Shown here one piece after another: positions 7,350 through 38,137 of a DNA stretch of 64,000 bases; positions within the stretch are counted from its first letter, which is position 1, and the number at the start of each line of letters is the position of its first letter. The translations under genes were made by a program, and so were the position numbers. This stretch comes from Alphaproteobacteria bacterium UBA830 (GTDB lineage Bacteria; Pseudomonadota; Alphaproteobacteria; MPNO01; UBA830), in the NCBI GenBank assembly GCA_905181725.1, contig CAJIYX010000052.1, forward strand, positions 12,139 through 76,138, in the 5' to 3' direction. The notes below the pieces were generated by a model, which saw nothing but the letters and a program-made list of their open reading frames with translations, had not been told where the DNA came from and made no database searches.

Positions 7350-7373
7350 GTGAGATACCCCCAGACCCGGCGT

Positions 7374-8477: not shown

Positions 8478-9650
8478 TCAGCGAAAGCACTTTTCCGGAC
8501 CCGCGCGCAGTATTTCGGATGTAGGCGATACGTTCTGCCGTGCGTGGATGACTGGAAAGCATGCCCAGGATGCTTTGCCGTTCTGTTTTTTCTCAGACTT
8601 TTTGCTGATCTTGTCAAAGAAACGCAGCAACCCGCTACCGTCGATATTTGCAGCATTCAGGCGTTTAATTGCGAAGGTGTCGGCGGCGCGTTCCGCTTTG
8701 TGCGAATAGCTGCTGTTGAGCGCCCATTCAGCTATACCGGTGACCAGAATGCCGTCGGCAAAATCACCGATCATCGCGCTGATCAATAGTGAAACCGCCG
8801 TCGTCCTGTATATCGCTTGTGTCGGGTGCTGATGAAACACATGTCCGATCTCATGGCTGACAACCCCGGCGATTTCTTCAGGCGAACCTGCGGCCTTGAT
8901 CAGACCCGATGTGACAACAACGTATCCCCCCGGCAGAGCGAATGCGTTCACCAGCTTTGCGTCGACAACTACCATGTTGAGCCAGCGCGGGAGCAACCAC
9001 GACGCGTTTGCGGAGAGCGACAGACTCGTTCCACCGAAACGTGCGTTCGCGAAAAAGTACTTCAGCGTTGAGACGCGTAGCCATGGGTTGGCGAGGAGAA
9101 GCATGACAAGGCTCAACGCAGTGTAAGCGAACGAGATCACAGCGTAACGCACTGCCGACCCGTCGAGATCAAAGCGGACACCGCGCCAGATTGTAAGGGT
9201 CGGTCTGTAGCGCCGCATACGGTAGATTGCGATGTGAATCAGGAATGCGATGATTGTGTAATAGATAACCTGGATGATGATTGGCAGCGGGCCTTCCATG
9301 CCCACCATCAGGAACTGAAGCAGCGAATAGACGGCGCCGAACGGTACCAGTATGACGATGGCGATCAGAAAGCCGACGAAAAGTTCTCCGCCGGTGCCAA
9401 GATATTCCAACGGGTCGTCCAGCAGTTTCGTGTGTTGCTAGACATACTTGCGAACCCGGGTTTTTGCCCAGAACCGGTATATCCCCAGGGTGACGATCGT
9501 CAGAAGAAAATTACGTGCGAGCAGCCAGAACAACCGCTTGCGGGGGCCGTCGAAATCCACCGACCGTCTTTGTCCCAGATCGGAAGCAGTATGTGTTGTA
9601 TCCAGAGTCACCGATTGCGGCGCCGTTAAGGCGTTCTCATTCTCTGTCAT
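8478..9650 (-). pseudogene. DUF898 (YjgN-like) membrane domain fused to M48 family metallopeptidase, interrupted by in-frame TAG at 9438-9440
   Basis: N-terminal piece ...FWLLARNFLLTIVTLGIYRFWAKTRVRKYV matches the YjgN first repeat. TAG follows, then the same frame continues QHTKLLDDPLEYLGTGGELF... (second DUF898 repeat), then the M48 motif NAFALPGGYVVVTSGL...HEIGHVFHQH. The TAG aligns with a Gln position in YjgN-like proteins. Confidence 0.55.
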
Positions 9651-13147: not shown

Positions 13148-13636
13148 CTATTTCAGGTGGTTCGCTTCGACGTCGCGGAGCAGCCCCTGGGCAGCGGCCT
13201 CGATCATGTCGAATACCCGCGCGAAGCCGTCGCCCGCCCCGTAATAGGGATCCGGCACGTCCGTAATGCCGGTTTCGGGCGCGTAATCCATCAACAGGCG
13301 CAGACGGTCGAGATGGGCGGTGGGACAGCTGGCACGCAGGCTGTGAAGATGGCTTGAATCCATCGCGACGATCAGGTCGAAATCGCGAAAATCGTCTCCG
13401 CGCACCGAGCGCGCCTGCTGGCCGCTGATATCGATGCCGCGGGATAAAGCGGTTTTCTGGGATCGCCCGTCCGGCGCTTCGCCCGCGTGCCAGGAGCCCG
13501 TCCCGGCCGAATCTACGCTGATGCGGTCATCCAGTTTTTGCGATTGGACCAGATGCAGAAAAACGCCTTCGGCGGTGGGGGACCGGCAGATATTCCCGGT
13601 GCAGACGAACAGGATCCGAATCTGGTTGGGCAACAC
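13148..13636 (-). CDS. low-molecular-weight protein-tyrosine phosphatase / arsenate reductase family
   Basis: VLPNQIRILFVCTGNICRSPTAEGV... carries the CX5R(S) P-loop. GTG start at 13636 with GAGG upstream. The 495-aa track ORF is a spurious upstream extension overlapping the divergent UDG gene. Confidence 0.8.
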   Translation of the reverse strand: MLPNQIRILFVCTGNICRSPTAEGVFLHLVQSQKLDDRISVDSAGTGSWHAGEAPDGRSQKTALSRGIDISGQQARSVRGDDFRDFDLIVAMDSSHLHSLRASCPTAHLDRLRLLMDYAPETGITDVPDPYYGAGDGFARVFDMIEAAAQGLLRDVEANHLK

Positions 13637-13676
13637 GCGATAGCCTCGATTGGTTGATAGGGCGTATACTACACGT

Positions 13677-13714
13677 TTCCAGCCCCGAAAGTTCCAGCCC
13701 CGAAAGTTCCAGCC
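13677..13714. repeat. 15-bp tandem direct repeat (ccagccccgaaagtt x2.4) in a divergent intergenic region
   Basis: ttccagccccgaaagttccagccccgaaagttccagcc lies between the divergently transcribed LMW-PTP and UDG genes. Confidence 0.85.
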
Positions 13715-13726
13715 GGCCGGCTTGCG

Positions 13727-14314
13727 ATGACAGATACGATCGAAACGATTTTTCGCGATATCCGCGCCTGTACCCATTGCGCGGCGGATTTGCCCATGGG
13801 GCCGCGGCCTGTGGTGCGGGGCACGGCATCGGCGCGCGTGTGTATCATCGGTCAGGCGCCGGGCGTGCGGGTCCACCGCAGCGGGGTTCCGTGGGATGAC
13901 CCCAGCGGCAAACGCCTGCGTGGCTGGCTTGAGGTCGATGACGAGACTTTTTATGACGAAGACCGGTTCGCGATTATTCCGGTTGGATTTTGTTATCCGG
14001 GGACGATGGCAAACGGCGGTGATTATCCGCCGCGCAAGGAATGCGCTCCGCTCTGGCATGCGCCCGTGCTCAATGCGCTGAAAAACGTTGATCTGACCCT
14101 GCTGGTGGGCAGCTACGCCCAGGCCTATTACCTCGGGAAAAATCGCAAAAAGACGATGACCGAAACGGTGAGGTCGTGGCGCGACTACGGCCCCGATGTT
14201 CTGGTGACGCCGCATCCAAGCTGGCGGACAACGGGATGGCAGAAAAAGAACCCGTGGTTCGATGAAGAAATTCTGCCTGAGCTGCGCCGCAAGGTGAAAG
14301 CGCTGATCGCGTGA
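13727..14314 (+). CDS. uracil-DNA glycosylase superfamily protein (family 4/5-like)
   Basis: 195 aa, motif VCIIGQAPG and C-terminal HPS motif (TPHPSWR). Confidence 0.8.
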   Translation: MTDTIETIFRDIRACTHCAADLPMGPRPVVRGTASARVCIIGQAPGVRVHRSGVPWDDPSGKRLRGWLEVDDETFYDEDRFAIIPVGFCYPGTMANGGDYPPRKECAPLWHAPVLNALKNVDLTLLVGSYAQAYYLGKNRKKTMTETVRSWRDYGPDVLVTPHPSWRTTGWQKKNPWFDEEILPELRRKVKALIA

Positions 14315-15231
14315 AGCTACCCGCTGCCTATACCGCCCTGCCGCCCGCCAACCGCGCCGTAATCCTGATGGTGATGTCGGCGATATCCTATGCCCTGACC
14401 TATGCCACGATCCGGGAACTGACCGAGTCGTTCTCGGTGTATCAGCTCGTGCTCTTCCGGACCGGCATCGGGACGGCAGTGATGCTGCCCTGGGTTTTCC
14501 GGTCCGGGATTCGCGTCTTGCGGACATCGCGCTGGAAGCTCTATGGCGTGCGCGCGTTGGCGGTGTACACAGGTAATCTCTGCTGGTTCTACGCCCTCGC
14601 CGAAATGGCCCTTGCAGACGCGACGGCGCTATCATTCCTGATGCCCGTGTTTGCTGCCCTGATATTGGCCTTCTGGATGCGCGAGCAACTCAACGGCGCA
14701 CGACTGGTGGCGCTGTTTCTCGGCCTGGCCGGCGCGTTCGTGGTTATCCGCCCGGGCTTTACCGAGGTCGGGCTTGCAACGCTTTCCATGCTGTATGCGA
14801 CCATCGTTTATGGGGGTGCAATGGCGGTGACCCGCGTGCTGGCCAAGACTGAGGATTCGAACGCCGTTGTTTTTTACATGTTCGCGCTCAACCTACCGCT
14901 GGCATTCGGCCCCGGCGTATATCACTGGACGACCCCATCGCCATCGCTTTGGCTGCTGATCGTGGTTTTCGCGATACTCAGCCTGTATTCGCAGATATTC
15001 ATGACGCGGTCTCTGGCGCTTGCCGAAGCCGCAGTGGTTATGCCGAGTTTCTATCTTCAGCTGCCGATTGCGGCGTTGTTCGGGTTCTTTCTGTTCGGAC
15101 AGGTGCCGGATATCTGGTTGATTCCTGGTGCGATATTAATAATTGGCGGAAGCTACTATTCGGTCTGGAGCGAAAGCAGGCGGCGTCGTCTTGCCGCAGA
15201 AGCGGCCGTGGCGCAGGAAGGTGGCGCATGA
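14311..15231 (+). CDS. EamA/DMT family transporter
   Basis: 306 aa, 10-TM profile with duplicated EamA domains. Confidence 0.8.
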   Translation: MKLPAAYTALPPANRAVILMVMSAISYALTYATIRELTESFSVYQLVLFRTGIGTAVMLPWVFRSGIRVLRTSRWKLYGVRALAVYTGNLCWFYALAEMALADATALSFLMPVFAALILAFWMREQLNGARLVALFLGLAGAFVVIRPGFTEVGLATLSMLYATIVYGGAMAVTRVLAKTEDSNAVVFYMFALNLPLAFGPGVYHWTTPSPSLWLLIVVFAILSLYSQIFMTRSLALAEAAVVMPSFYLQLPIAALFGFFLFGQVPDIWLIPGAILIIGGSYYSVWSESRRRRLAAEAAVAQEGGA

Positions 15232-16106
15232 GTGCACAGGATCGCGCACCCGCAGCGGGCGCGCTTGTCGGGTTAATGTGGATGACCGGGACGGCCGCCT
15301 GTTATGCGGCAAGTTACGTTGCACTGCGCCTGCTGTCGGACGATATCGGTATTTACGAACTGACGTTTCTGCGCTCCGTCGTCGCATGTCTGTTTCTCGG
15401 CCCGTGGATACTGGCGACCCGGCCACGCGCGATGCGGGTGACGCGCTGGAAGCTCTATAGCGTCCGGTCTGCCGTGACCTACGCTGCCATGATGTGCACG
15501 GTCTATGGCGTCGTCCATGTGCAGATCGCCGATGTAACATCGCTGCTCCTGGCGTCGCCTCTGTTCACTGTTTTGTTTGCCGCCGTATTTCTGAAAGAAA
15601 AAGTCGGCTTTCATCGCTGGATGGCCCTGCTTGCCGGGATCGCAGGCGCATTGCTCATCATCCGGCCCGGATTTACCGAAATCACTTTTGCCAGCTTTGC
15701 CGGGCTGTTGGCAGCCTTCGGCTACGGTATGTCCAATGCGGGCACCAAGGCGCTGACGGCGACGGATCATCCCGATGCCGTTGCGTTCTGGATGTACGCA
15801 TTGATCATCCCGATCTCCGCGATACCGGCGGCCGTTCACTGGACGACCCCGGGCTGGAACCACATACCGCTGATCGTTCTGCTCGGTCTGCTGACGATGC
15901 TATCGCAATATTCCATGGCGCGGGCGTTTCGCGCGGCGGATACCAGTGTTGTGCTGCCGGCGCATTATCTGCAGATGCCGTTTGCCGCGGGGCTCGCGTT
16001 TCTGATTCTGTCGCAGGTGCCGTCGGTCTGGGTGTGGCCGGGTGCGGCCATCATCGCGGGCAGTGCCTATTACACCGTGATCCGGGAGCGCCGGAACGCC
16101 TCCTGA
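15228..16106 (+). CDS. EamA/DMT family transporter
   Basis: ATG at 15228 overlaps the upstream TGA (ATGA). MSAQDRAPAAGALVGLMWMTGTAACYAASYV.... The 385-aa track ORF from 14949 is an out-of-frame over-extension. Confidence 0.8.
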   Translation: MSAQDRAPAAGALVGLMWMTGTAACYAASYVALRLLSDDIGIYELTFLRSVVACLFLGPWILATRPRAMRVTRWKLYSVRSAVTYAAMMCTVYGVVHVQIADVTSLLLASPLFTVLFAAVFLKEKVGFHRWMALLAGIAGALLIIRPGFTEITFASFAGLLAAFGYGMSNAGTKALTATDHPDAVAFWMYALIIPISAIPAAVHWTTPGWNHIPLIVLLGLLTMLSQYSMARAFRAADTSVVLPAHYLQMPFAAGLAFLILSQVPSVWVWPGAAIIAGSAYYTVIRERRNAS

Positions 16107-16882: not shown

Positions 16883-18202
16883 ATGACCTCTGAGCCGATC
16901 ACAGAGCATTCTGTCGATACATATCTGACCGGTATCTTCCGTGAAGATGCCGGCCGGGTGCTGTCTGCGCTGATCGCGCAGCTGCGGGATTTCGATCTTG
17001 CAGAAGACGCGCTGCAGGATGCGGTCTCCGCCGCGCTGACCGCGTGGCGTCGGGACGGGTTGCCCGTTAACAGGGCCGCCTGGTTACTCACGGCAGCGCG
17101 GCGAAAGGCAATCGACCGGCTGCGCCGCAATGCCGTGCGCGACGCACCCCAGAATGTTTAGGCGATCGTCGACGAGCTGGAGTAATCCGTGGCCGAACCA
17201 GAAGCCGACCAGGAAATTCCCGATGAACGCCTCCGGCTGATTTTTACCTACTGTAATCCAGCGCTCAATCAGGCGGCACAGGTAGCACTCACGCTGCGGA
17301 CCCTGTGCGGCCTGTCGACGCGTGAAATTGCGCGGGCGTTTCTGGTGCCGGAACCGGCGATGGCCCAACGGCTGGTCCGGGCAAAGGGCAAGATCAGCAA
17401 AGCCGGGATCCCTTATAAGGTCCCCTAGGCACCGCAGCTGGCGGAACGCCTGCACGCCGTTCTGGCGACCGTCTATCTGATCTTCAATGAAGGCTACGCG
17501 GCGACGGACGGGGATAGTCCCGTCAGGGCGGATCTGTGCGAGGAAGCTATCCGCCTTGGTCGACTGCTTGTGCGACTGGCGCCGGAGGCCGAAGTGGGCG
17601 GCCTGCTGGCCCTGATGCTGTTGCACGATTCCCGCCGCACCGCCTGTCACAGCACCGAAGGCGAAATGATCGCCCTGGATGCGCAGGATCGCCGGCTCTG
17701 GAACGAATCCAGGATTGTGGAAGGGACCCATCTGCTTCGTGCGTCGCTCGGGCGGAACCGGCCCGGGCCCTATCAGGTGCAGGCTGCCATGAGCGCCTTG
17801 CATGCGGAAGCCGCCACGTTCGCCGAAACCGACTGGCCCCAGATCGCGGGACTCTACGCCGCGCTCGAACAAATGACGCCGTCCCCTGTCGTGACCCTGA
17901 ACCGAGCGGTTACCGTATCGCATTGCGGTTCCGTGGAAGAGGCATTGCAGATACTGGACTCTGTCGCGGAAGCACTTGCAGGCTATCAGCCTTTGTTGGC
18001 GGCAAGGGCGGATTTTCTGAGGCGGCTTGGCCGGGACGGGCCAGCGCAGAGCAGAGCAGAGCAGAGCAGAGCAGAGCAGAGCAGAGCAGAGCAGAGCAGA
18101 GCAGAGCAGAGGGCCTATCGCGCGGCGCTGGAACTGACGACGAATGCAGCGGAAAGAGGGTTCCTCGAGAAACAGCTCAAGACGCTGCGGCCGGGAGATT
18201 AA
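16883..18202 (+). pseudogene. RNA polymerase sigma-70 factor (ECF-like, DUF6596-type, SigJ-like) with three in-frame stops (TAG 17159, TAA 17183, TAG 17426)
   Basis: The three track ORFs (16883.., 17189.., 17570..) share one frame and together read region 2, ...DERLRLIFTYCNPAL..., ...VLATVYLIFNEGYAA..., and a C-terminal ...AYRAALELTTNAAERGFLEKQL typical of this family, which commonly neighbours YciI-like genes. Confidence 0.7.
18046..18110. repeat. pentanucleotide microsatellite (GCAGA)13 inside the sigma-factor coding region
   Basis: gcagagcaga... encodes (AEQSR)n on the + strand and (LLCSA)n on the antisense ORF. Confidence 0.95.
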
Positions 18203-18600
18203 TCGCCCGCATTGGCTACCAGCCGTTCCATGTCGTCGTCCGACAGGCCGAAATGGTGGCCGATTTCGTGAATCAACACATGGCGGACCAGCTGCGACAG
18301 GTCTTCCTCGGTCTCGCACCAGTAATCGAGCAGCGGGCGGCGATACAGGAAGATCATGTCCACCACGTGTGCCGCGCCCGCATCCTTTTCGCCAACCGGC
18401 ACACCGCTATACAGTCCCATCAGGTCGAACGGGCTTTGCAGGCCTATTTCCATCACCGTCTCCGGGTCCGGAAAGTCATCGACGCGAAACACAATGCCTG
18501 TCGTCAGCATCCGGAAGGTGTCGGGCAGGGTATCGAACGCCGTCCGTGCAATGGCCTCGATGTCGTCAAGCGACGGGGCGGTGGTAAATTCTCTGCTCAT
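18199..18600 (-). CDS. zincin-like metallopeptidase family protein (HExxH, ~130 aa)
   Basis: MSREFTTAPSLDDIEAIARTAFDTLP...HEIGHHFGLSDDDMERL. Confidence 0.6.
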   Translation of the reverse strand: MSREFTTAPSLDDIEAIARTAFDTLPDTFRMLTTGIVFRVDDFPDPETVMEIGLQSPFDLMGLYSGVPVGEKDAGAAHVVDMIFLYRRPLLDYWCETEEDLSQLVRHVLIHEIGHHFGLSDDDMERLVANAGD

Positions 18601-18995: not shown

Positions 18996-19883
18996 TCAGG
19001 CCCTCTCCTTTTTCGCTTCATGCCGTGTGATGTAGAGCGTCGCGGAGACGATGATCCCGGCCCCGACCCACGTCCAGATATCGGGCACCTCGGTGAAGAT
19101 AAAATACCCGGCAAGGGCCGCGAACACGAGGCGGATATATTCCATCGTGCCCATCAGACTGGATTCGCCGACCGAAAACCCGCGCACGAAAAAATTCATG
19201 CCGATGGCCGTGAAGGTCGCGATCAGGCAAAGCAGCACCCATTCATGCGGTGTCGGGTCGACCCAGACATAGGCCGCCGGTGCGGCGAAGATGATTACGC
19301 CGAATATGTGGTACCAGAACAGGATGGTGCCCGGCGGATCGTCGCGGCCAAGAATGCGGATGATGATAAGCCCGGAGGAAAACAGCAGCGCGGTGACAAG
19401 TGCCACTCCCCAGGCGATATCGACCTCGCCACCGAACGGCCGCATCATCACGATCACGCCGGCAAACCCGATGAGCGTCGCGCACCAGCGGTGAAGTCCG
19501 ACGACTTCTTTCAGAATAAAGATTGCCAGGATCGTCAGGAAAAGGGGGCGCGTGAAGGTCATGGCCGTCGCATCCGCGAGCTGCAGATGAATGACCGTAT
19601 AGAAAATACCAGCCTGTCCCAATGTTGCCAGCACCGCGCGGATAAAATGCAGTTTCAGCCGCTTGGTGCGGAGTTTGACGCGACCCGTCCGTATAAATAG
19701 CGGGGCGAGCAGGATAAAACCGATGCCGTAGCGAAAGATCGACATCTGCGCCGGATGGATGCGGTCGCCGGTAAGCTTCACGACGATATCCGTCAGCACG
19801 AAGAACGCCGTACCCATGATCACGAACAGCGCGCCGCGGATATTCGGCGGCAGAGCATGGAATTTTTCGATATATCCGCTCAT
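18996..19883 (-). CDS. EamA/DMT family transporter
   Basis: 295 aa, 10-TM EamA duplication. First of four tandem paralogs. Confidence 0.8.
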   Translation of the reverse strand: MSGYIEKFHALPPNIRGALFVIMGTAFFVLTDIVVKLTGDRIHPAQMSIFRYGIGFILLAPLFIRTGRVKLRTKRLKLHFIRAVLATLGQAGIFYTVIHLQLADATAMTFTRPLFLTILAIFILKEVVGLHRWCATLIGFAGVIVMMRPFGGEVDIAWGVALVTALLFSSGLIIIRILGRDDPPGTILFWYHIFGVIIFAAPAAYVWVDPTPHEWVLLCLIATFTAIGMNFFVRGFSVGESSLMGTMEYIRLVFAALAGYFIFTEVPDIWTWVGAGIIVSATLYITRHEAKKERA

Positions 19884-19895
19884 GCGACCCGTTTC

Positions 19896-20780
19896 CTATT
19901 TCTTGCGGCCCTGGCGCGTCAACCAGACCGCGGAGATAAAGATGATCGTTCCGCCGATCCACGTCCAGACGTCTGGAAATTCAGCAAAAACCAGCCAACC
20001 AAGAAGTGCCGCCCATATCAGGCGGGTAAAATTGAACGGCATGGCGATGGAAATATCTGCGGCCTGAATACCCCGGTTATAGGTACGCTGCAGGATCACG
20101 CTCGTCGCGCCGATAAAGACGAATATCCCCCATTCCTCGAGGCTCGGCGTGCGCCAGACGATCAGGGTCGGGATCAGCAGGATCAGTGTCTGCGTGACGA
20201 ACAGCCAGGCGGCAATGGTATCCGGCGGATCGGTGCGGACCAGCGTCTTGATCATAATAGACACGAATGCGCCGGCGACCGCCGAGCCCAGCGCGTAGGC
20301 CATGCCCAGATTGAATTCAGCAAAGCCCGGCCGGACGACGAGGACGGCGCCGACGAAGCCCATGGAAATCGCCAACCAGCGTTTGCGCCCGGCCACTTCA
20401 CCCAGAACGAACCCGGCGATGGCGGCTCCGATCACCGGCTGCAGAAAATTGATCGCCGACATATCGGCAATCGGGATCAGCGCGACGGCGGCAAATAGCA
20501 GGGTAACATTGGTCGACGACATGAAACCGCGGATGACATGTTTGCCGATCTGCCTGGTGCGCATCGCGCCCAGTCCGACCTTCATCAGCCAGGGCATCAT
20601 GAACAGGATTGCGAAGGCGTTGCGCAGAAACGCGATCTGGAACACTTCGATGCTGGGCGCCATGTAGCGCCCGATCGCGATTGAAATCACATATGCGACC
20701 GCGGAGATCGACATCCAGACCCCGGACCGGACCGGGCCGGGCAGGGCAGCGAAACGTGCGGTCAGGGTAGCGACGGTCAT
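19896..20780 (-). CDS. EamA/DMT family transporter
   Basis: 294 aa. Confidence 0.8.
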   Translation of the reverse strand: MTVATLTARFAALPGPVRSGVWMSISAVAYVISIAIGRYMAPSIEVFQIAFLRNAFAILFMMPWLMKVGLGAMRTRQIGKHVIRGFMSSTNVTLLFAAVALIPIADMSAINFLQPVIGAAIAGFVLGEVAGRKRWLAISMGFVGAVLVVRPGFAEFNLGMAYALGSAVAGAFVSIMIKTLVRTDPPDTIAAWLFVTQTLILLIPTLIVWRTPSLEEWGIFVFIGATSVILQRTYNRGIQAADISIAMPFNFTRLIWAALLGWLVFAEFPDVWTWIGGTIIFISAVWLTRQGRKK

Positions 20781-20781
20781 G

Positions 20782-21726
20782 CTATTCCGGCACCGAAGTG
20801 GTGGATGCTGCAGTGGCTGCCCGTTCGCGCGCTTTCCGTGCCTCGCGCTGGGCGATATAGACGGTTGAGGCGAAGATCAGTGCGCCGCCCATCGCGGTGT
20901 AGATCGACGGTATCTCCGAAAACAGCACATAGCCGAACAGGGCGGCGATGATGAGCCGCGAAAAATCCATCGGCAGAATGATCGATGCGTCAGCCGCCGC
21001 GTATCCGCGCGACATTGCGCGTTGTCCGAGCGTGCCGACCAGCCCTGTGAATGACAGCCAGCCGATCTGCTCCCAGGTCGGCGTCTCCCACACGAACAGC
21101 GCCAGGACCAGCATCATCGGGGTTGTGAACAGCACCATGTACATGGTGATGGTGTCGGGAGATTCCGTGCGTGACAGATAGCGGATAAGGATCGCCGCCG
21201 CGGCGCCCGCGATGGAGGCGACAAATACGGCTGCAAGACCGAGACTGAGCGCCTCGAAGCCGGGCCGGACCATCACGAGGACGCCGAGAAAGCCGATCCC
21301 CAGCGCCGTCCAGCGCCGTTGGCCGACAATCTCGCCGAGAAAGACAATGGCGAAAACCGTGCCGTAGAGCGGGCGCGTGAACATGATTGCCACGGCATCG
21401 GCTAGCGGGATCTCGCCGAGCGCATAGAAAAAACCGAGCGATCCGATGGTCGTGGCGAGCGCTCGGGCCAGAAACGAGGAGGTCTTGGTGGTTTTCAAAC
21501 CCTGCAGGCGTGAGCGGATCAGCCACGGGGCCATAAAGACAAAACCGAGCCCGATGCGAAAAAACGCGATGATGAAGGTGTGCACATCCGCCGAAAGGTG
21601 CCGGATCGTGGCTGCCATGGCGGTAAGGCAGACGGCGGCGATCAGTATCCAGATCGTGCCCTGGACCGGGCCTGAAAGCCCGGCGAACCAGGTGGCGACG
21701 GCACCGGTGGTCGTGCCCGTGCTCAC
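20782..21726 (-). CDS. EamA/DMT family transporter
   Basis: 314 aa. Confidence 0.8.
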   Translation of the reverse strand: MSTGTTTGAVATWFAGLSGPVQGTIWILIAAVCLTAMAATIRHLSADVHTFIIAFFRIGLGFVFMAPWLIRSRLQGLKTTKTSSFLARALATTIGSLGFFYALGEIPLADAVAIMFTRPLYGTVFAIVFLGEIVGQRRWTALGIGFLGVLVMVRPGFEALSLGLAAVFVASIAGAAAAILIRYLSRTESPDTITMYMVLFTTPMMLVLALFVWETPTWEQIGWLSFTGLVGTLGQRAMSRGYAAADASIILPMDFSRLIIAALFGYVLFSEIPSIYTAMGGALIFASTVYIAQREARKARERAATAASTTSVPE

Positions 21727-22622
21727 GACGCTTTTTTCCGGTCACGGCGCGATTCGGTGCGTCCGGCGAAGATCGACGAACAGAAGATCACCACGCCGCC
21801 GGCAATGGTCCAGATATCCGGCAGTTCCGAGAAAACGACAAAGCCGATGGCAATGGCGAAGGGCAGGCGGGTGAAATCGAACGGCGCGATGGACCCGACA
21901 TCGCCGGTCGCAAAGGCGCGGGAATACAGGCGTTGAGCTGTGGTCGACCCGGCGCCGAGCATGAAACCCCAGAACCATTGTTCTGCGGTCGGCCATTCCC
22001 AGACGAACAGCACGGCGATGAAGGCAAAGGGCAGCATGTAGATTGACTGATAGATCGCCGCTTTGTCCGGCGTATCAGTGCGCAGCATGACCTTCAGGAT
22101 CATGGCGGAAAAAGCGATGCACACGCCGCCGCCCACCACCATGAAGACGCCGATATTCACTTCCTGAAAACCGGGGCGAACGACGATCAGTGTCCCGGCG
22201 AACCCGATGGCCAGCGCGATCCATCTGGTGGCATGCGCCGGCTCTTTGAGCAGCAACACGCCGGCAAGCGCAATAAACAGCGGAAAAGTGAACGAGATCG
22301 CAGTCGCATCCCCGATCGGGATGAGTGCCAGGCTGCCGAACCAGCCATACATGGCGATCGTACTCAGAAACCCGCGGGTGACATAAAATTTCGTGTGCGA
22401 TGTCCGCAATACGCCGACGCCCGACCGCATCAGCCAGGGCAGCATGATGACGATGCCGAATACGGCGCGGAAAAACGAGATCTCGATAAAGTGTAGATCT
22501 CTGGACAGGTAGCGCACGATCCCGGCCTGGCCGGCGAAAAACACGGCGCTGAGCGTCATCCAGATGGCGCCTTGCGCAGAAGGCGACAGCCGGGCGAAAG
22601 TAGTTTTTACGGATTGGATCAT
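21723..22622 (-). CDS. EamA/DMT family transporter
   Basis: 299 aa, 4-nt overlap with the upstream paralog. Confidence 0.8.
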   Translation of the reverse strand: MIQSVKTTFARLSPSAQGAIWMTLSAVFFAGQAGIVRYLSRDLHFIEISFFRAVFGIVIMLPWLMRSGVGVLRTSHTKFYVTRGFLSTIAMYGWFGSLALIPIGDATAISFTFPLFIALAGVLLLKEPAHATRWIALAIGFAGTLIVVRPGFQEVNIGVFMVVGGGVCIAFSAMILKVMLRTDTPDKAAIYQSIYMLPFAFIAVLFVWEWPTAEQWFWGFMLGAGSTTAQRLYSRAFATGDVGSIAPFDFTRLPFAIAIGFVVFSELPDIWTIAGGVVIFCSSIFAGRTESRRDRKKAS

Positions 22623-23552: not shown

Positions 23553-23894
23553 ATGGTCAGCGATCACAAGGAATTCGCCAAGGAAGTTGACGCCCGGGCA
23601 GCAAAGCTCTTCAAGGCGGCACCCGATACGATGCGGGCATTCCGGGGGTTGATGGAAACCGCCGGCAAGGAAGGGGCGCTGGATGCCAAGACCAAGGAAC
23701 TGATGGCGCTGGCTGTTGGAATTGCCGTCCATTGTGAGGGCTGCATCAATTTTCACACACGTGCGGCTATCAAAAAGGGTGCGACGCGTGAAGAAGTGGC
23801 CGAAACGGCGGCAGTCGCGATCGAGATGGGGGGCGGCCCCGCCGCCGTTTACGGTGCCCAGGCGCTCGAGGCGTTCGATCAGCTTTCGGGCTAA
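23553..23894 (+). CDS. carboxymuconolactone decarboxylase (AhpD-like) family protein
   Basis: 113 aa, AhpD-like CxxC-type motif HCEGCINFH. Confidence 0.8.
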   Translation: MVSDHKEFAKEVDARAAKLFKAAPDTMRAFRGLMETAGKEGALDAKTKELMALAVGIAVHCEGCINFHTRAAIKKGATREEVAETAAVAIEMGGGPAAVYGAQALEAFDQLSG

Positions 23895-24027
23895 ACAATA
23901 AAATTCTACGAGGTCTAAAATTTACTTTGACCCGTATCCAGAACGATAGCATTTTCTCGACGGATTGATTTCGCAGGGAACGCGATGAACGCGCGGCTTT
24001 AAGCCTATCTTGGAGGCCTTTTTAAGA

Positions 24028-25695
24028 ATGTCTGGTGCTTTCTCTACTGGCCTGTTCAGGGCTGGTCTGTTGTATTTTGGAATAGCTCTGACGGCAGGAT
24101 TTGCCGTTTCCACTGCCTATGCACAGGGAACGGAGCTGTCTGGTCGTGCCAAGGCGGCCGACAAGAACAAGAACGGTGTTATTGACCGCAATGAGGCGGG
24201 AGGTCCGCTGAAGTCGAATTTCGCCGAGATGGACTGCAATAAATCCGGCACGCTCGACGGCGCCGAGATCAGCGGTTTCTTTACCGGCGTGGAATGCCCC
24301 AAACCCGCCGCTGCCGCACCGGTCGCTGCGCCGGTTATGGCTAAAAAACCCGTGCCGCCGCTATCGGATCGCGGCAAGGCCGCCGATAAGAACAAAAATG
24401 GTGTGATCGACCGCAACGAGGCGGGAGGTCCGCTGCAGTCGAATTTTAATGATATGGATTGCGACAAATCGGGCACGCTGGACGGCGGCGAGATCAAAGG
24501 TTTCTTCACCGGTGAAGAATGCCCGAAACCGGTCGCTGCGAAATCCGCCCGCGGTACGGCGCCAAAAGCGCAGGCCAAACCAACGGCGACAGATGGTAAA
24601 AAAGCCAGCGGCAAGAAAGCTGGCGGTCGGCGGCCGCGTGCCGTTCGTGTTGATGCCGTCATCGTTGAGCCCAAATCCCAGACCTACCCGGTGATTGGTC
24701 GGCTGGTTGCCCAGCGCACCGGCAACGTGGCGGCCAGGATTAACGGTGCCGTCGTCGAAATGAACGCAAACGTCGGCGATCGCGTCAAAAAAGGCGATGT
24801 TCTTGCGGTGCTGGCGATTAAGCGCCTGACCGCCCAGCGCGACAAATATGCGGCGGCGTTGTCGACCCGGCGCGCCATGGTTCAGACGGCGCAGGCGGAA
24901 GCGTCGAAGACCACGCAGGAACTTCGGCGGATGTCGAACCTGAAGAAATCGTCGGCCTTTTCGGGTGCCCGATATGAAGATCTTCAGCGTGACGTTGATG
25001 CGCGTCGTGCGACAGTGAATGAACGTCGCTCGCAGATGAAAGAAGCACAGGCGGAACTCGACCAGGTCGCGATCGATTTGTATAACGGCAGCATCCGCGC
25101 ACCCTATGATGGCGTTGTCAGCGAAAAGAACACGGAAATCGGCTCTTATGTAAATGTCGGGAACCCCGTGGTCACGCTGATCAGCGACACCGAGATCGAA
25201 GTCGAAGCGGAAGTGCCGTCCGACCGCATTGCTGGCCTGACAACCGGCAGGGTCGTGCGCTTTGAGCTGGATGACGGCACCGAGCACCGGGCAACGGTTC
25301 GCTCTGTTATTCCGAGCGAAAATGCCCGCACCCGCACGCGTCCGGTCCGGTTTACGCCGAAATTCGGTGAAAAATCATCGCGCTTCGCGATCAATCAAAG
25401 TGTGACGGTTCTGGTGCCTATCGGCAAAATCCAAGACGTCGTGACGGTGCACAAGGACGCCATCGTCCATCGTGGCCCGAACCGCGTCGTCAGTATTATC
25501 CGCAACGGCAAGGCTTTCCCACGCCAGGTGACGCTCGGTGTCGCGGTCGGTAATCGCTACATCGTCCAAAAGGGGCTCAAAGCAGGCGACGTGGTCGTGA
25601 CCCACGGCAACGAAACCCTGCCGCCGGGTGCGGCGATACGCATTCTGACCGGTGGTTCGCCGCGCGCCAATGGCGAGCAGACACAGACCAACTAA
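24028..25695 (+). CDS. efflux RND periplasmic adaptor (HlyD/MFP family) with N-terminal signal peptide and duplicated EF-hand pair module
   Basis: GGAGG RBS before ATG 24028, signal peptide MSGAFSTGLFRAGLLYFGIALTAGFAVSTAYA. Two ~55-aa repeats each carry canonical EF loops DKNKNGVIDRNE and DCNKSGTLDGAE. A K/A/P-rich linker leads into MFP beta-barrel/lipoyl/alpha-hairpin regions (…VIGRLVAQRTGNVAARINGAV…). Confidence 0.8.
   Translation: MSGAFSTGLFRAGLLYFGIALTAGFAVSTAYAQGTELSGRAKAADKNKNGVIDRNEAGGPLKSNFAEMDCNKSGTLDGAEISGFFTGVECPKPAAAAPVAAPVMAKKPVPPLSDRGKAADKNKNGVIDRNEAGGPLQSNFNDMDCDKSGTLDGGEIKGFFTGEECPKPVAAKSARGTAPKAQAKPTATDGKKASGKKAGGRRPRAVRVDAVIVEPKSQTYPVIGRLVAQRTGNVAARINGAVVEMNANVGDRVKKGDVLAVLAIKRLTAQRDKYAAALSTRRAMVQTAQAEASKTTQELRRMSNLKKSSAFSGARYEDLQRDVDARRATVNERRSQMKEAQAELDQVAIDLYNGSIRAPYDGVVSEKNTEIGSYVNVGNPVVTLISDTEIEVEAEVPSDRIAGLTTGRVVRFELDDGTEHRATVRSVIPSENARTRTRPVRFTPKFGEKSSRFAINQSVTVLVPIGKIQDVVTVHKDAIVHRGPNRVVSIIRNGKAFPRQVTLGVAVGNRYIVQKGLKAGDVVVTHGNETLPPGAAIRILTGGSPRANGEQTQTN
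24141..24530. repeat. ~165-bp imperfect tandem duplication encoding the two EF-hand-pair units
   Basis: 24141-24304 and 24367-24530 are ~80-85% identical at the DNA level. Confidence 0.8.
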
Positions 25696-25749
25696 ACGTC
25701 GACCAATCAGGTGGCGCGCGCGCCACTCGTCAAAGGAACGGAGCAGGCC

Positions 25750-28700
25750 GATGAACTTAATCCGGCTTTCAATCGAACGGCCCATTGCGATTGTCGCCAT
25801 GGTCATGATGATCATTTTGTTCGGCTATGTCGCCCTGCAACGTATCCCGATTCAGATGGCGCCCGACGTGCGCCAGCCGATTATTATCGTCAAAACGACC
25901 TGGCCGGGTGCTGCCCCGCAGGAGGTTGAGCGTGAAGTTATCAACCCGCAGGAAGACGAACTGAAAGGTCTCGAAGGCGTCAAGAAAATGACGTCGAAAG
26001 CTCAGCGCAACCGCGGCGAGGTGACGCTCGAATTCGGTCCGGAAATCAACTTCGACCGCGCACTGCTTCTTGTTGCCAACCGGCTCGACCGGGTGTCGGG
26101 ATATCCGGAGGAAGCGGACGAGCCTGTATTGTCCACGTCAGGCACCGAAGACAATGCCATTGCCTGGTTCATCATTACGCGCCAGGAAGGCAATACCCGT
26201 GACATGATCACTAATGGTGATTTCCTTGCGGATGTCGTCCAGGAGCGGATAGAGCGGGTCGAAGGCGTCGCCGGCGTCAATATCTTCGGCGAAACCGAAC
26301 GCGAGATGTCGATTACGATCACGCCGGAAAAACTGGCGCGCTACGGGATGACCGTCAGCGAGGTATTACGGCGCCTTCGGGCAGCAAATGCGTCAATCAC
26401 GGGCGGTGATGTCGAAGAGGGCAAGCGGCGCTATGTCGTCCGCACCGAAGGTGATCTGAACACAACGCAGCTTGTTGAAGACGTGGTTCTGCGGAGCGAC
26501 GGCGACGGCGGTGATCGTGGCGTCGGGCGCGTTGTTGTGCGTGATATCGCCGATGTGTCCATCGGTTACAAGAAAGCGCAGGCGCGCCTGCGGATACTTA
26601 ACCAGCCTGCACTTGCCTTCAATATTACGCGGGAACAGGGCGCCAACGTTATCAAGACGATGGCGGATGTGCGGGAGATTATAAAAGGCCTCGCCGACGG
26701 ACCCGTGAAGCGCCAGGGGCTGTTGATCGAACAGGTTTACGACGAGACAGATTACATCAATTCGTCGATCGACCTGGTGCGCACCAATATCATTTACGGC
26801 GGCATTCTCGCGATTATCGTCCTCATGATTTTCCTGCGATCCTGGCGGCCGACGGCCGTTGTGGCGATGGCGATTCCGGTCTCGGTGGTGGGCTCATTCG
26901 TTGCGATGGCGGTCCTTGGCCGCTCGCTCAACGTGATCAGCCTTGCAGGGATCGCGTTCGCCGTCGGCATGGTGGTCGATGCTGCCATTGTTGTGCTCGA
27001 AAACATCTTCCGCCTGCGCCAAGAAGGCCGCTCCCGCACGGAAGCGGCATATTACGGCGCGCAGCAGGTCTGGCCCGCCGTCCTCGTTTCCGCGCTGACG
27101 ACGGTAATGGTGTTTATCCCGATTCTGATCATGGATCTTGAAGTCGGGCAGTTGTTCCGCGATATCGCGGTCGCGATCTCGGTATCGGTCATGCTGTCTT
27201 TGCTGGTTGCCGTCACACTGATCCCCGCGCTGGCAAACGGGCTTCTGGGGGGTGTGAAAACGGAAATGGGCGGCATGCGCATTCCGCTGGTGGACGATTT
27301 CGCCCGCGGCTTTACGAATTTCTGGTCCCGCTATGCGCGGTTTGTCGTGCAGTACAAGACGATGGCTGTTGCGGTTGTCACGCTGATTGTTGTGGTCGCC
27401 GGAACGATTTCCATCCTGATTATGCCGAAGCTGGACTACCTACCAAAAGGCAACCGCAACCTGGTCTTCGGTATTGTCCTGCCGCCCGCGGGCTACAATC
27501 TCGATACCAATGAAGGCATCGCGCGGAGCGTCGCGGATAAAACGAAAAAATATTGGTCGCGCGGCGCCTATGCCGAGATCAACAAGCCTGAAGACCAGAA
27601 GATCGACCGTTTTTTCTATGTAGCCCGGCTGGGCAGTATGTTCATGGCGGCGACCCATGTCGACCCGCAGAAGGCGGGTGAACTGGAAGCGCTTATCGAA
27701 GGACCGGCCCGGGCGGAACCAGGTGTGTTTGCATTTATGTTCCAGCCGTCCCTGTTCGGACGATCCATCGGGTCGGGACGGGCCATAGATATTGAAATAT
27801 CGGGTCCCGATCTTGAGACGATTTATGGCGTCGGCCGAGAGGTCTTCTTTGCGGCGCGCGCAGTCCTGCCGCCAAGCGAAGGCAACAGGGTGCGGCCCAA
27901 GCCTGCCCTCACGCTTGGAGAGCCCGAAGTTCGTATTACTCCGGATCGCGTTCGTCTTTCCGACAATGGACTATCCGCACGTGAGCTTGGCGAATCCATT
28001 GACGCGTTCAATGATGGTATCCGCGTCGCCGAGGTTACGGTCGACGGAAAACGGATTGATCTGACCCTCAAGGGACCTGATCCGGAGCAGGAATCGACCC
28101 AGGCTATCCGCTCCCTTCCGGTTGTAACATCGGATGGCCGGATCGTGCCGGTCGGCAATCTTGCTGACATCCGGGAAACCACTGGCCCGACAGAGATTCA
28201 GCGCATCGACCGGTCGCGCACTATGACGGTCAGTGTCAGTCCGAATGACGCGCTGCCGCTCGAAGCTGCCGCCGAACTTCTTGAAGAAAAAGTTCTCGGA
28301 CCGATCCGGGCACGGGGTCTGCCTGAAGGGGTCCGGTTCCGGCTAGGCGGTAGTGCTGACAAGCTGAAGGAAACCTGGGATCACATGCAGCTCGATCTGT
28401 TGCTGGCACTTGTGATCGTCTTCCTGGTGATGGCGGTGCTGTTCGAAAGTTTCCTCTATCCTTGGATTGTGATGCTGACAGTGCCGGTGGCGGCGGCGGG
28501 CGGTCTCGGCGGTCTGGCATTACTTAATACATTTGTGCCCCAGTCTCTCGATATGTTGACCATGCTCGGCTTTGTCATATTGATCGGGATAGTGGTCAAT
28601 AACGCGATCCTGCTGGTGCATCAGACCCTGTTCCATATCCGCGAAGACGGACTGGACGTGAATAACGCCATCGAGACTGCGACCCGTAACCGAATTCGCC

Positions 28701-28933
28701 CTATCTTCATGTCGACGCTGACATCGGTCTTCGGGATGCTGCCGCTGGTCGCTTTCCCCGGGGCGGGTTCGGAGCTGTATCGCGGGCTGGGCGCTGTCGT
28801 ATTGGGCGGGTTGTCGCTGTCGGCGGTCCTGACGATGGCGATCGTGCCGCCGATGATGTCGATTACCGTCGGTATCGTCGAAGGCCGCAAGGCGCGTCGT
28901 GTGGCCCGTTCGGAGCCGGTCGCGGCGGCGTAA
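25750..28933 (+). CDS. efflux RND transporter permease (AcrB/AcrD/HAE1-like)
   Basis: MNLIRLSIERPIAIVAMVMMIILFG..., ~1060 aa, 12-TM with two large periplasmic loops. The track ORF start at 25652 is an over-extension overlapping the MFP. Confidence 0.9.
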
Positions 28934-33380: not shown

Positions 33381-34247
33381 TCAGTGGCCACCTTCGCGTT
33401 TTGCCAATTGCCAGGTGCCGATAAAGATCACAGCGGCGCCGATTATCGTCCAGACACCTGGAACCTCCGCAAAAAAGATATAGGCAGCCACTGCCGTCAG
33501 CGGCAGGCGGATAAATTCCATCGGGATGATCACGCTGGCATCTGCCCGTTTCATGGCCTGGGCAAGACACATATGTGCCGTCCACGCCGTCACGCCCATT
33601 ACCAGGATCAGCGGAATATCGCTGGCCGGCGGGGTGTGCCAGTTCATTGCGGTCGGGATCGCCGAAAACACGATCAGGTAGATATTGAGGTTCACCACAA
33701 TCAGGCGCACGGGTTCGGTACGTGACAGCAGCTTTGTGCTAATATCGCCGCTCGCATATCCTGCCGCGGACAGGAAGACCACCAGCGCCATGATGTTGAT
33801 GGCCTCGGCGCCGGGGCGCAGGATGATCAGGACGCCGACGAAACCGATTACGACCGCCATCCATCGGGGCTGGGTGATCTGCTCGCGCAGGATCACGGCG
33901 GACAGGATCAGGCCGAAAATCGGCAGTGTGAAATGCAGGGCCACGGCTTCGGCAAGCGGTAGTTCGGCGATGGCAAAAAACCATGCGGAGACGCCGATAA
34001 ATGTGCCGAGAGCACGCGCTCCATATAGCCTGCCAAGGGCGTTTGGCCTGAAGGTATGAACTGTTTCACGCCAGACGCGGAGTACCATCGGAAGGCCGAT
34101 TGCCAGGCTGATGACACTGCGCAGGAATACCTGTTCGAAAGGGGGGATGGTGTCCGACAGATATCGGACGGCGATAATCATCGCCGAAAAGCTCGCCGTG
34201 CTCGCCGTCATCCATAACAGACCCTGCATAACGGGCGTCAGGTTCAT
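33381..34247 (-). CDS. EamA/DMT family transporter
   Basis: 288 aa. Confidence 0.8.
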   Translation of the reverse strand: MNLTPVMQGLLWMTASTASFSAMIIAVRYLSDTIPPFEQVFLRSVISLAIGLPMVLRVWRETVHTFRPNALGRLYGARALGTFIGVSAWFFAIAELPLAEAVALHFTLPIFGLILSAVILREQITQPRWMAVVIGFVGVLIILRPGAEAINIMALVVFLSAAGYASGDISTKLLSRTEPVRLIVVNLNIYLIVFSAIPTAMNWHTPPASDIPLILVMGVTAWTAHMCLAQAMKRADASVIIPMEFIRLPLTAVAAYIFFAEVPGVWTIIGAAVIFIGTWQLAKREGGH

Positions 34248-36032: not shown

Positions 36033-37253
36033 ATGGCCGGACCACGACCCGGAGAGGTCAACAAGATCGTGCTCGCCTATTCGGGCGGGCTGGATACGTC
36101 TGTCATCCTCAAATGGCTGCAGGAAACCTATGATTGTGAGGTGGTGACATTCACCGCCGATCTCGGTCAGGGAGAAGAGGTCGAGCCGGCGCGGGCCAAA
36201 GCCGAAGCCGCCGGGGTGAAGGAAATCTTCATCGACGACCTGCGCGAGGAATTCGTCCGAGATTTCGTCTTTCCGGTGTTCCGCGCCAATGCCCTGTATG
36301 AAGGCGTTTACCTGCTCGGCACCTCGATCGCCCGGCCGCTGATTTCCAAGCGCCAGATCGAAATCGCCCGCCAGGTTGGTGCCGATGCCGTCAGCCACGG
36401 GGCAACCGGCAAGGGCAATGACCAGATCCGGTTCGAGCTTGGCTATTACGCGCTGGAGCCCGATATCAAGGTGATCGCGCCGTGGCGTGAATGGGATCTT
36501 GATTCCCGCACCAAACTGATGGAATACGCCCGGGAGCACCAGATCCCGATCGCGCGCGACAAGATCGACGAGCCGCCTTATTCGACCGACGCCAACCTAC
36601 TGCACATTTCCTATGAAGGAAAAGCGTTGGAAGACCCGTGGGTCGAGGCGGACGAGGCGATGTATACGCGTTCTGTCTCGCCCGAGATGGCGCCCGATAC
36701 GCCGACCTATGTCGAGATTGATTTCGATCGGGGTGACGCCGTGGCCGTCGACGGTCAGGAAATGTCACCCGCAACGCTGCTGACCAAGCTGAACGAGCTT
36801 GGTGGCGCCAACGGCATCGGCCGGATCGACATCGTCGAGAACCGCTATGTCGGCATGAAGTCCCGCGGCGTGTACGAGACGCCGGGTGGCACGATCCTGA
36901 TCGCGGCCCATCGCGGCATCGAATCCCTCACCCTCGACCGGGGGGCTGCGCATCTGAAGGACGAGCTCATGCCGCGCTACGCGGAGTTGGTCTATAACGG
37001 TTTCTGGTTCGCGCCCGAGCGCGAGATGCTCCAGGCCGCCGTCGATGAGAGCCAGAAATACGTCAACGGTACTGTCCGTCTGAAACTGTTCAAGGGGTCG
37101 GTCACCGTGGTTGGGCGCAAATCACCGGTCAGTCTGTATTCCGAACAGCACGTCACCTTCGAGGCGGATACCGTTTATGACCAGCGCGACGCTGAAGGAT
37201 TCATCAAGCTGAACGCCCTGCGTCTTCGCCTGATGAACGCCCGCAAGGGATGA
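36033..37253 (+). CDS. argG: argininosuccinate synthase
   Basis: 406 aa, [11 protein letters not shown]-loop. Unmistakable ArgG. Confidence 0.95.
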
Positions 37254-38137
37254 CGGTGGGGGGCTCTGCCCCACCGTCCCAGTTTCTCCGCAGCGCTTTC
37301 TGGGCGATTCTGGCAGCTGTCAGTTTCGCCTTCATGATGACAAGCGTGCGCTATATGGACGGCAAGTTTGATGCTTTCCAGATTGTGCTGGTTCGTGCGC
37401 TGGTCGGGATTCTGCTGGTGGGCCCGCTGGTCTCCAGATCCGGCATCGGCGCGCTCAGGACAAACCGGTTACCGATGCATTTCGTGCGCACGCTGTTCGC
37501 GCTGTTCGCCATGGCGACCCTGTATTATGCGCTCGCCTATATTCCGGTGGCGCAGGCGATCGCGCTGACGTTCCTCATTCCCCTGTTTACGACGATCGCC
37601 GCAGGCCTGGTGCTGCGGGAATCCGTTGGTATTCATCGCTGGGGCGCGACCCTGGTCGGGTTTGCCGGGGCCATGGTGATCATCCGGCCGGGCGTGATCG
37701 AAATCGAATTGCCCGTGATGCTCGTGGTCCTGTCATCCGCGCTGTATGCCGGGGCATGGTCCAGCGTCAAAATCTTGACCCGCACAGATTCTCCCGCCGT
37801 TACCGTGTTCTGGCTGAACGTGCTGATGGTGCCGCTGACGGCGATCCCGTCAGCGTTTCTGTGGGTAACGCCGGACTGGTCTGATGCCCTCCCATTGATG
37901 GCAATGGCGCTGTCGGGCTGGTCCGCCCATTTCTGTCAGGCGCGTGCGTTCGAACATTCCGACGCCAGTGCAGTGATGCCGTTCGATTTTTTGCGCTTGC
38001 CGCTGGGCGCCCTGTTCGGCTACGTATTGCTGGACGAATTCATCGATGTGTGGACCTGGACCGGCGCCGTCATCATCTTTGTCGCCGGTTATTACATCAC
38101 CCGGCGTGAAGCGCTGCGGAGTGCGAAGCCCTTATAG
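37250..38137 (+). CDS. EamA/DMT family transporter
   Basis: 295 aa. Confidence 0.8.

Follow-up and report, generated by a model that had tools for sequence, protein, structure and literature searches.

An RND efflux adaptor with two predicted Ca2+-binding EF-hand-pair modules at its N-terminus in an uncultured alphaproteobacterium

Here, we present an analysis of a resistance-nodulation-division (RND) efflux locus in a 64,000-nucleotide (nt) stretch of DNA (the window) from Alphaproteobacteria bacterium UBA830 (assembly GCA_905181725.1, contig CAJIYX010000052.1, positions 12,139 to 76,138 of the forward strand). The two genes of the locus form an RND efflux operon and encode a periplasmic adaptor (membrane fusion protein [MFP]) and a divergent permease. 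A preliminary description of the window, made from its letters, had noted a signal peptide, two repeats with two EF-hands each, a linker, an adaptor, a permease, and no gene for an outer-membrane factor (OMF), and we recovered all of these elements (Table 1). More importantly, we found that the EF-hand-pair module at the N-terminus of the adaptor is a portable unit that uncultured Alphaproteobacteria carry at the N-termini of periplasmic proteins, including proteins that have nothing to do with efflux.

The adaptor and its EF-hands are encoded in a single unbroken open reading frame (ORF) that runs from TTG 24010 or ATG 24028 to 25695 on the plus strand. Because a GGAGG sequence is located 12 nt 5' of ATG 24028, we took this codon as the start of the adaptor gene. 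The permease gene starts at ATG 25751, 55 nt past the adaptor stop, and not at GTG 25652. The gap 5' of the adaptor gene is 133 nt and contains a match to a sigma-70-like promoter; since the number of such sites in the region equals the expectation from shuffled sequence, this match is no more than a candidate. The earlier claim of one continuous ORF, with neither a start codon nor a frameshift separating the EF-hand region from the adaptor, is supported by the ORF itself and by homologues that are continuous in the same way, the closest of which is 97% identical, represents 55 member sequences, and has the same architecture.

Pfam EF-hand_1 matches the adaptor protein in four stretches (9.8e-11; 40.9 bits vs a cut-off of 25.4). 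The signal peptide preceding them lacks a lipobox Cys, there being no Cys in amino acids (aa) 1-33, and in the AlphaFold2 model of the full-length protein, a helix spans aa 10-22 within the putative signal peptide. Each module consists of 56 aa with 12 residues between its two EF loops, and module 2 is 82% identical to module 1; a search with a hidden Markov model (HMM) of the module found no additional modules elsewhere in the window. At the DNA level, the modules derive from a direct repeat of 180 nt per copy with 82% identity (recomputed, 81.7%) and a start-to-start period of 225 nt. Thus, the repeat unit is the module plus its linker, and the copies do not lie head to tail. Accordingly, the duplication in the preliminary description stands, and its ~55-aa repeats correspond to the 56-aa modules, but a ~165-bp tandem of ~85% identity does not. 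Tandem Repeats Finder did not report the repeat of 225-nt period because the copies are 225 nt apart and their linkers have diverged.

All four loops are canonical 12-residue EF-hand loops in which positions 1, 3, 5, and 12 provide ligands, position 6 is Gly, and position 8 is hydrophobic; on careful alignment, the conserved ligand residues anticipated for these loops were confirmed in each of them. In an alignment of the window's two modules with those of 12/13 representatives (<80% identical to each other), D1, N3, E12, the hydrophobic positions, and the E-A-x-G-P-L segment between the loops do not vary; overall, the ligand positions D1, N/D3, N/S5, G6, I/L8, D9, and E12 show little or no variation. 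Across the 13 representatives and the window's second module, conservation is also strong for surface residues that are not ligands (R5, E21-A22-x-G24-P25-L26, F30, E45-I46, and F49-F50). We predict that the module is occupied by Ca2+. The two copies in the window differ by 18 synonymous and 10 non-synonymous codon changes among 59 codons, arguing for purifying selection on both of them. In most lineages, copies inside one protein are 0.86-1.0 identical and closer to each other than to the copies of other lineages, which points to recurrent duplication or gene conversion, i.e., concerted evolution. The module also has a pair of Cys residues, one at position 2 of the second loop and the other 20 residues on. 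Across 358 distinct modules, both Cys residues are present in 182, neither in 171, and the second alone in none; in four of the five modules with only the first Cys, a partner Cys is found at +19. This co-variation implies a structural disulfide in the oxidising periplasm, and we refer to the Cys-Cys staple as a putative disulfide.

In the full-length model, both modules have a predicted local distance difference test (pLDDT) score of ~84, while pLDDT is <50 for aa 90-107 and aa 166-199, i.e., the linkers; moreover, the length of linker 2 differs among homologues. Structure prediction of the EF-hand region thus gave two folded EF-pair modules joined by linkers modelled as disordered, suggesting that the modules behave as beads on a string. 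In a model of the module by itself (pLDDT, 88.7), there are three short helical stretches, and a beta bridge connects the loops. In Foldseek, this model resembles the lobes of troponin C, calmodulin, and EhCaBP1 (TM-scores of 0.55-0.70), with E-values above 0.03 owing to the small size of the domain.

In the usual description, an RND adaptor has four domains and is anchored to the inner membrane through a lipid or a transmembrane (TM) helix. The core of the window's adaptor matches Pfam HlyD_3 (8.5e-22) and HlyD_D23 (1.2e-18), both above cut-off, and passes the RND_mfp model TIGR01730 with 189.5 bits vs a cut-off of 94.9. Its model has a four-domain fold with pLDDT mostly of 82-97, and in Foldseek, it matches AcrA (2e-27), TMexC, MacA, and MexA (E-values of 2e-27 to 1e-24), i.e., TolC/OprM-docking adaptors in structures of assembled tripartite pumps, with a TM-score of 0.76 to E. 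coli MacA. The tip of the alpha-hairpin has the residues R301-x3-L305-x6-S312, which are invariant in 32 sequences and which we take to be the "RLS" OMF-contact motif of the AcrA/MacA literature. An OMF gene is absent among the window ORFs of at least 400 aa and among the conserved neighbours, up to 8 kb away, of 80 related loci (described below). The hairpin, the RLS-type tip, the likeness to AcrA, MacA, and MexA, and the lack of a linked OMF gene together make it likely that the adaptor works with an unlinked TolC-like duct. Of the two explanations previously offered for the missing OMF, a TolC-like protein encoded elsewhere therefore gains from the hairpin, its invariant tip, and the Foldseek matches, while an inner-membrane-only function is unlikely on the same evidence. 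The window's adaptor shares with AcrA, MexA, and MacA the four-domain core, the long hairpin, the R-x3-L-x6-S tip, and the position of its gene directly upstream of the permease gene; it differs from them in lacking a lipobox and, apart from a signal peptide that looks cleavable, an obvious TM anchor, in having an N-terminal extension of 166 residues, and in the absence of an OMF gene from its operon.

The permease, which had been described as AcrB-like and directly 3' of the adaptor, matches Pfam ACR_tran (1.3e-202) and passes the superfamily model. Its best solved relatives are 8yr0 and 7wlv, followed by MexB and CmeB; 8yr0 occurs in papers on AdeG, and 7wlv in papers on BpeB/BpeF. It scores below the cut-offs of all NCBIfam subfamilies (RND_permease_2, 596 vs 1250; TIGR00915, 430 vs 940), and with 308 bits vs a cut-off of 701 on the CusA/CzcA model TIGR00914, it is not of the heavy-metal efflux (HME) class. 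By these scores, the permease is nearest to multidrug (HAE1-type) pumps and lies outside the curated subfamilies. In TM helix 4 (TM4), it has GMVVDAAIVVLEN near aa 405-417 and in TM10 GIVVNNAILLV near aa 945-955. Aligned to MdtF and AcrB, these segments read VDAA in TM4 and VNNA in TM10; Ala takes the place of AcrB D408 and Asn that of K940, while the equivalents of D407 and R971 are kept. The two motifs are invariant in >60 of the 80 loci (L001-L080), including those of a clade whose adaptors have no EF-hands. The AcrB-type proton relay (D407, D408, and K940) is, therefore, incomplete, which suggests that this RND subfamily uses a different proton (or ion) relay.

Table 1. Coordinates of the features of the efflux locus in the window
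Feature	Position	Strand	Residues (aa)	Details	Basis
Sigma-70-like promoter match	23892..23921	+		Weak; candidate only	9/12 hexamer matches
RND periplasmic adaptor (MFP) gene	24028..25695	+	555 in total	N-terminal EF-hand extension	Pfam, TIGR01730
Sec-type signal peptide	24028..24123	+	1-32	Predicted cleavage between AYA and QG	Read from sequence
EF-hand-pair module 1	24133..24300	+	36-91	Putative Cys70-Cys90 disulfide	Module HMM, 107.8 bits
Module 1, loop 1	24160-24195	+	45-56	DKNKNGVIDRNE	
Module 1, loop 2	24232-24267	+	69-80	DCNKSGTLDGAE	
Linker 1	24301..24357	+	92-110	12/19 Ala or Pro, 3 Lys, zero acidic	
EF-hand-pair module 2	24358..24525	+	111-166	Putative Cys145-Cys165 disulfide	Module HMM, 110.0 bits
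Module 2, loop 1	24385-24420	+	120-131	DKNKNGVIDRNE	
Module 2, loop 2	24457-24492	+	144-155	DCDKSGTLDGGE	
Linker 2	24526..24624	+	167-199	9 Lys or Arg, 12 Ala or Pro	
Direct repeat behind the two modules	24135..24539	+		Copies at 24135-24314 and 24360-24539	Direct-repeat search
Adaptor core	24625..25692	+	200-555	Membrane-proximal, beta-barrel, lipoyl, and alpha-hairpin domains	Model, Foldseek
Alpha-hairpin	24817..25083	+	264-303 and 313-352	40-residue helices	Model
RND permease gene	25751..28933	+	1060 in total		Pfam ACR_tran

A search for proteins similar to the entire adaptor yielded 1103 matches. According to a scan for the loop pattern, 119 of the 120 best homologues have one EF loop or more, with up to 6 loops per protein, corresponding to one, two, or three modules; precomputed Pfam annotation misses the EF-hands in many single-module homologues, in which the pattern scan detects the loops. 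Some homologues are encoded on contigs of 3.5-6.1 Mb in metagenome-assembled genomes (MAGs). In a genome scan with one genome per species, we identified 80 loci, all of them in MAGs of uncultured Alphaproteobacteria, with labels that include Rhodospirillaceae, Defluviicoccus, Paracoccaceae, Hyphomicrobiaceae, and Kiloniellaceae. In 79 of these loci, the adaptor gene is followed by that of an orthologous RND permease; in the remaining one, the contig ends inside the adaptor gene. The same fusion is thus found in other genomes with >100 homologues, and it is not rare: hundreds of database proteins have it under generic names such as "RND family efflux transporter MFP subunit". The architecture is absent from the cultured organisms sampled here and common in uncultured Alphaproteobacteria, many of them marine. 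The relatives originate from seawater and sponge metagenomes; their sources include Tara samples, and isolate names suggest the deep ocean, the Fram Strait, the Caspian Sea, a sea cave, and sponge symbionts; the host is probably marine as well. Clustering of the genes within 8 kb of the 80 loci revealed no conserved partner, regulator, OMF, or metal-related gene, and the sole neighbour shared among close relatives is a Sir2-family gene. A full-text literature search for EF-hands fused to an RND adaptor (MFP or HlyD) or to DctP, and for lanmodulin together with RND, returned no description of such proteins. The fusion of EF-hands to an efflux adaptor, which had been put forward as an undescribed architecture, is thus one for which we found no description in the literature searched.

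Adaptors down to ~43% identity, encoded with permeases at least 63% identical to that of the window, carry the module. In the sister clade without EF-hands, the adaptors are ~47% and the permeases 56-58% identical to those of the window, and the permease motifs in TM4 and TM10 are identical. The signal peptides of the sister adaptors end in AEA, with Q as the next residue and no lipobox, and the first strand of the core follows immediately. From this arrangement, we infer that the module was inserted between the signal peptide and the core. Within the loci, one adaptor (L051, ORF 6867-9131) has no EF module; its permease is 70% identical to that of the window and has the same TM4/TM10 motifs. 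Because this identity is within the range of module-bearing relatives, L051 has probably lost the module secondarily. At seven loci of the EF-less clade (L058, 2959-5349 on the minus strand, and six others), an upstream conserved ORF encodes a protein with a C-terminal DsbA/ScsC-like thioredoxin domain; the long N-terminal part of the L058 ORF is unannotated and may be over-extended.

Two proteins of 98-99 aa that seemed to consist of the module alone (P0150 and P0270) were rejected as stand-alone versions; they result from frameshifts inside the repeated modules of adaptor genes in metagenome assemblies. A frameshift between the repeated modules of a three-module adaptor gene is seen in L081 (6001-7742), and one in a low-coverage contig end in L082 (6001-6406). 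The repeated modules are prone to assembly and gene-calling errors, and the continuous fusion is the rule.

The module is not confined to adaptors. With high scores and at full length, it is present directly after the signal peptide of three DctP-type binding proteins of tripartite ATP-independent periplasmic (TRAP) transporters (P0204, P0216, and P0231; Pfam PF03480) and after the signal peptide of two metallo-beta-lactamase (MBL)-fold proteins, in two copies in P0130 and one copy in P0180. The MBL fold of P0130 was assigned by Pfam PF12706 and that of P0180 by sequence similarity to P0130. The clusters represented by P0130, P0204, P0216, and P0231 have 55, 16, 82, and 11 members, respectively, of consistent lengths; their sources include NCBI, JGI, ENA, and Tara, and those with a name are MAGs of marine Rhodospirillales or Alphaproteobacteria. 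A protein search with the non-adaptor modules returned short fragments only and did not widen the list of carrier families. In addition, the C-terminus (aa 420-617) of an unrelated HlyD-type adaptor of 617 aa (P0184), which is encoded on a 105-kb ENA contig, bears three EF pairs, apparently as the result of a separate event in which EF pairs were joined to an efflux adaptor.

The best solved sequence relatives of the extension are lanmodulins (8fns, 2.5e-6; 6mi5, 3.7e-6), with alignments of 44 residues that run without gaps over loop, 12-residue spacer, and loop. On the NCBIfam LanM equivalog model NF053806, the adaptor scores 40.4 bits (2.8e-10), below the cut-off of 135. Like the module, LanM is periplasmic, has loops merely 12 residues apart, and has Asp at loop position 9; the short spacing of 12-13 residues that marks lanmodulins occurs within each module, where it is 12, and 12-residue spacing is also common in generic secreted EF proteins. 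A survey of LanM homologues reported that D3 is highly conserved and that all have four EF-hands (PMC11576760). Lanmodulin is a stand-alone protein with Pro2, Asp3, and four EF-hands in one domain (PMC11576760), which is compact and ~110 aa long, whereas the adaptor has two independent two-EF modules, separated by a linker modelled as disordered and fused to the adaptor core; loop position 2 is Lys/Ala or Cys and not Pro, and in loops 1 and 3, position 3 is invariably Asn. The module is, therefore, not a lanmodulin by HMM cut-off, Pro2, Asp3, or the four-EF domain, and LanM is absent among the top 50 Foldseek matches of the module model.

Using the module profile against 1.84 billion representative sequences, we obtained 4694 matches with E-values ≤1e-3, mostly secreted multi-EF proteins in which the spacing of the loops alternates between 24 and 33-60 residues. 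Judged from these sequence comparisons, the 24-residue-spaced EF pair is generic, and lanmodulin and the module are two specialised members of a broad class. Secreted multi-EF proteins of the Pfam EF-hand_5 type resemble the extension by having a signal peptide and 24-residue spacing that alternates with longer gaps; similarly, Caulobacter CaBP is reported to be a periplasmic, Sec-exported protein with three EF-hands (PMC13171946). However, these proteins and CaBP consist of EF-hands alone, while in the adaptor, a discrete 56-aa module, often with the putative disulfide staple, precedes functional domains.

The likeness to lanmodulins raises the possibility that the modules capture Ca2+ or a lanthanide and hand it to the pump for export. 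The gap-free alignment to lanmodulins as the closest solved relatives, the match to the LanM model, and Asp at loop position 9, as in Mex-LanM, fit with this idea; moreover, there is precedent for RND adaptors that bear a metal-binding domain on a flexible linker (PMC10407283), and a lanthanide-induced RND system has been reported (PMC9988556). In the precedent, i.e., CusB/SilB, including the SilF-like C-terminal domain of Cupriavidus metallidurans SilB, a small metal-binding region is flexibly linked to an RND adaptor, as it is here (PMC10407283). CusB/SilB have an N-terminal Met site, and their extensions bind Cu(I)/Ag(I) via Met and His in HME pumps, such that the bound metal matches the pump substrate. 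By comparison, the window's extension has the oxygen ligands of EF-hands, belongs to a pump that is nearest to multidrug pumps, and is also present on non-efflux proteins, i.e., importer binding proteins and hydrolases. Neither protein of the locus is of a metal-exporting class (the adaptor scores 109 bits on the CzcB-class model TIGR00999, below the cut-off of 319, and the permease score on the HME model is given above), and the LanM score is below its cut-off. Pro2 is lacking, loops 1 and 3 have Asn instead of Asp at their positions 3 and 5, which leaves fewer carboxylates per loop, the EF-pair spacing is generic in secreted bacterial multi-EF proteins, and no xoxF, lut, or PQQ gene is present among the annotated neighbours. 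Finally, pumping Ca2+ out of a periplasm that is in open contact with seawater would presumably serve no purpose. Based on these considerations, we regard metal capture and hand-off as very improbable.

What the module does is read here from its sequence, its distribution, and models of its structure. We consider it about an even call that the module is a generic N-terminal appendage that is folded by Ca2+ and constitutively loaded with it, its most plausible role being that of a multivalent tether or docking handle. In this scheme, the module would fold around Ca2+ once exported, would stay Ca2+-loaded in the host periplasm, and would act as a structural appendage, tether, or docking handle for periplasmic proteins; the adaptor and permease would work as a tripartite pump with the TolC-like duct encoded elsewhere, and the carriers would include two kinds of protein that work with inner-membrane transporters. 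The portability of the module, the flexible linkers, the labile copy number, the EF-less relatives, the multidrug-like permease, and the probably marine hosts argue against a pump-specific function, be it as a Ca2+ gate or in metal hand-off, and the strict conservation of the Ca2+ sites, the disulfide, and the surface residues argues against a mere spacer.

The preliminary description had suggested Ca2+-sensing or Ca2+-gated efflux, in which Ca2+ binding to the EF-hands would alter the extension and thereby make adaptor hexamerisation, permease contact, or duct opening Ca2+ dependent. The canonical and strictly conserved loops would suit a sensor; with six adaptors per pump, as in the known 6:3 stoichiometry, each assembly would have 24 sites, and the part of the core to which the extension is attached is the membrane-proximal domain, where the adaptor touches the permease. 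Nevertheless, DctP binding proteins and MBL hydrolases carry the same module, module and core are separated by linkers of 19-33 residues that are disordered in the model, the copy number varies from one to three, and EF-less relatives have permeases with identical motifs. Moreover, the periplasmic Ca2+ of a host living in seawater should be ~10 mM and thus saturating, and EF-hands of typical affinity would be fully loaded in marine hosts. We therefore consider a Ca2+ sensor or gate unlikely.

Alternatively, the module could be a passive spacer or folding aid without a partner, i.e., a stable, soluble Ca2+-folded bead that would merely extend the N-terminus or assist export and folding and that would have spread because it is easily duplicated and shuffled. 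Its labile copy number, the concerted evolution of its copies, the frameshifted assemblies to which the repeats give rise, its invariable position right after the signal peptide in unrelated proteins, and the lack of a partner gene are all in line with this explanation. On the other hand, the surface residues that are not ligands are strongly conserved, both copies are under purifying selection by the codon comparison above, the clade retains the module at adaptor identities as low as ~43%, and two intact Ca2+ sites together with a disulfide would be needless in a simple spacer. Altogether, a passive role seems somewhat improbable to us.

Several points weigh against a tether or docking handle. 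The neighbourhoods of the 80 loci yielded no binding partner, anchor target, or conserved neighbour gene. An EF site of low (mM) affinity could still sense Ca2+, and a portable module can still act in a pump-specific manner in this adaptor. The disulfide is deduced from co-variation, and the marine setting is read from the relatives and not from the window's own genome. Also, the idea that the module substitutes for a lost lipid anchor was rejected because the EF-less sister adaptors do not have a lipobox either.

A more specific version of the docking handle is drawn by analogy to dockerins. Like the module, a dockerin is a small, duplicated Ca2+-loop unit that is located at a terminus, has Pro-rich linkers, and is joined to many unrelated catalytic or binding domains; however, the dockerins of cellulosomal enzymes function at the cell surface, while the module is periplasmic and has no known cohesin-like partner. 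Pfam Dockerin_1 (PF00404) is not among the 18 families with E-values ≤1 on the window's protein. We speculate that the module could be a periplasmic counterpart of dockerins, i.e., a portable Ca2+-dependent docking unit that uncultured marine Alphaproteobacteria would place in one to three copies at the N-termini of RND adaptors, TRAP binding proteins, and MBL hydrolases to hold them on a common envelope partner or on each other, but we consider this version unlikely.

Elsewhere in the window, four paralogues of ~295-314 aa are encoded back to back on the minus strand (18996-19883, 19896-20780, 20782-21726, and 21723-22622). They cluster with the window ORFs 14949-16106, 33381-34247, and 37250-38137, and the one member of this cluster that was tested is an EamA/DMT-family transporter. 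The 495-aa ORF at 13148-14635 (minus strand) matches low-molecular-weight phosphotyrosine phosphatases, with the match restricted to aa 341-486, and its N-terminal 340 aa may be an over-extension or a domain of no recognised family. The 411-aa ORF at 17084-18319 (minus strand) has no Pfam match and may be spurious.

Our findings support that a whole clade of RND adaptors has repeated, predicted Ca2+-binding modules at the position where the anchor usually is and that the module has been re-used on importer binding proteins and hydrolases. If docking or tethering is its true function, then the module would represent an unrecognised way to organise periplasmic proteins in abundant uncultured marine bacteria. 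If, instead, the module tunes pump assembly, this would be a first example of direct metal control of an RND adaptor outside heavy-metal pumps. Finally, the module is compact, is related to lanmodulin-type EF pairs, and has a natural, if putative, disulfide, and it may therefore be of interest to engineers of metal-binding proteins.

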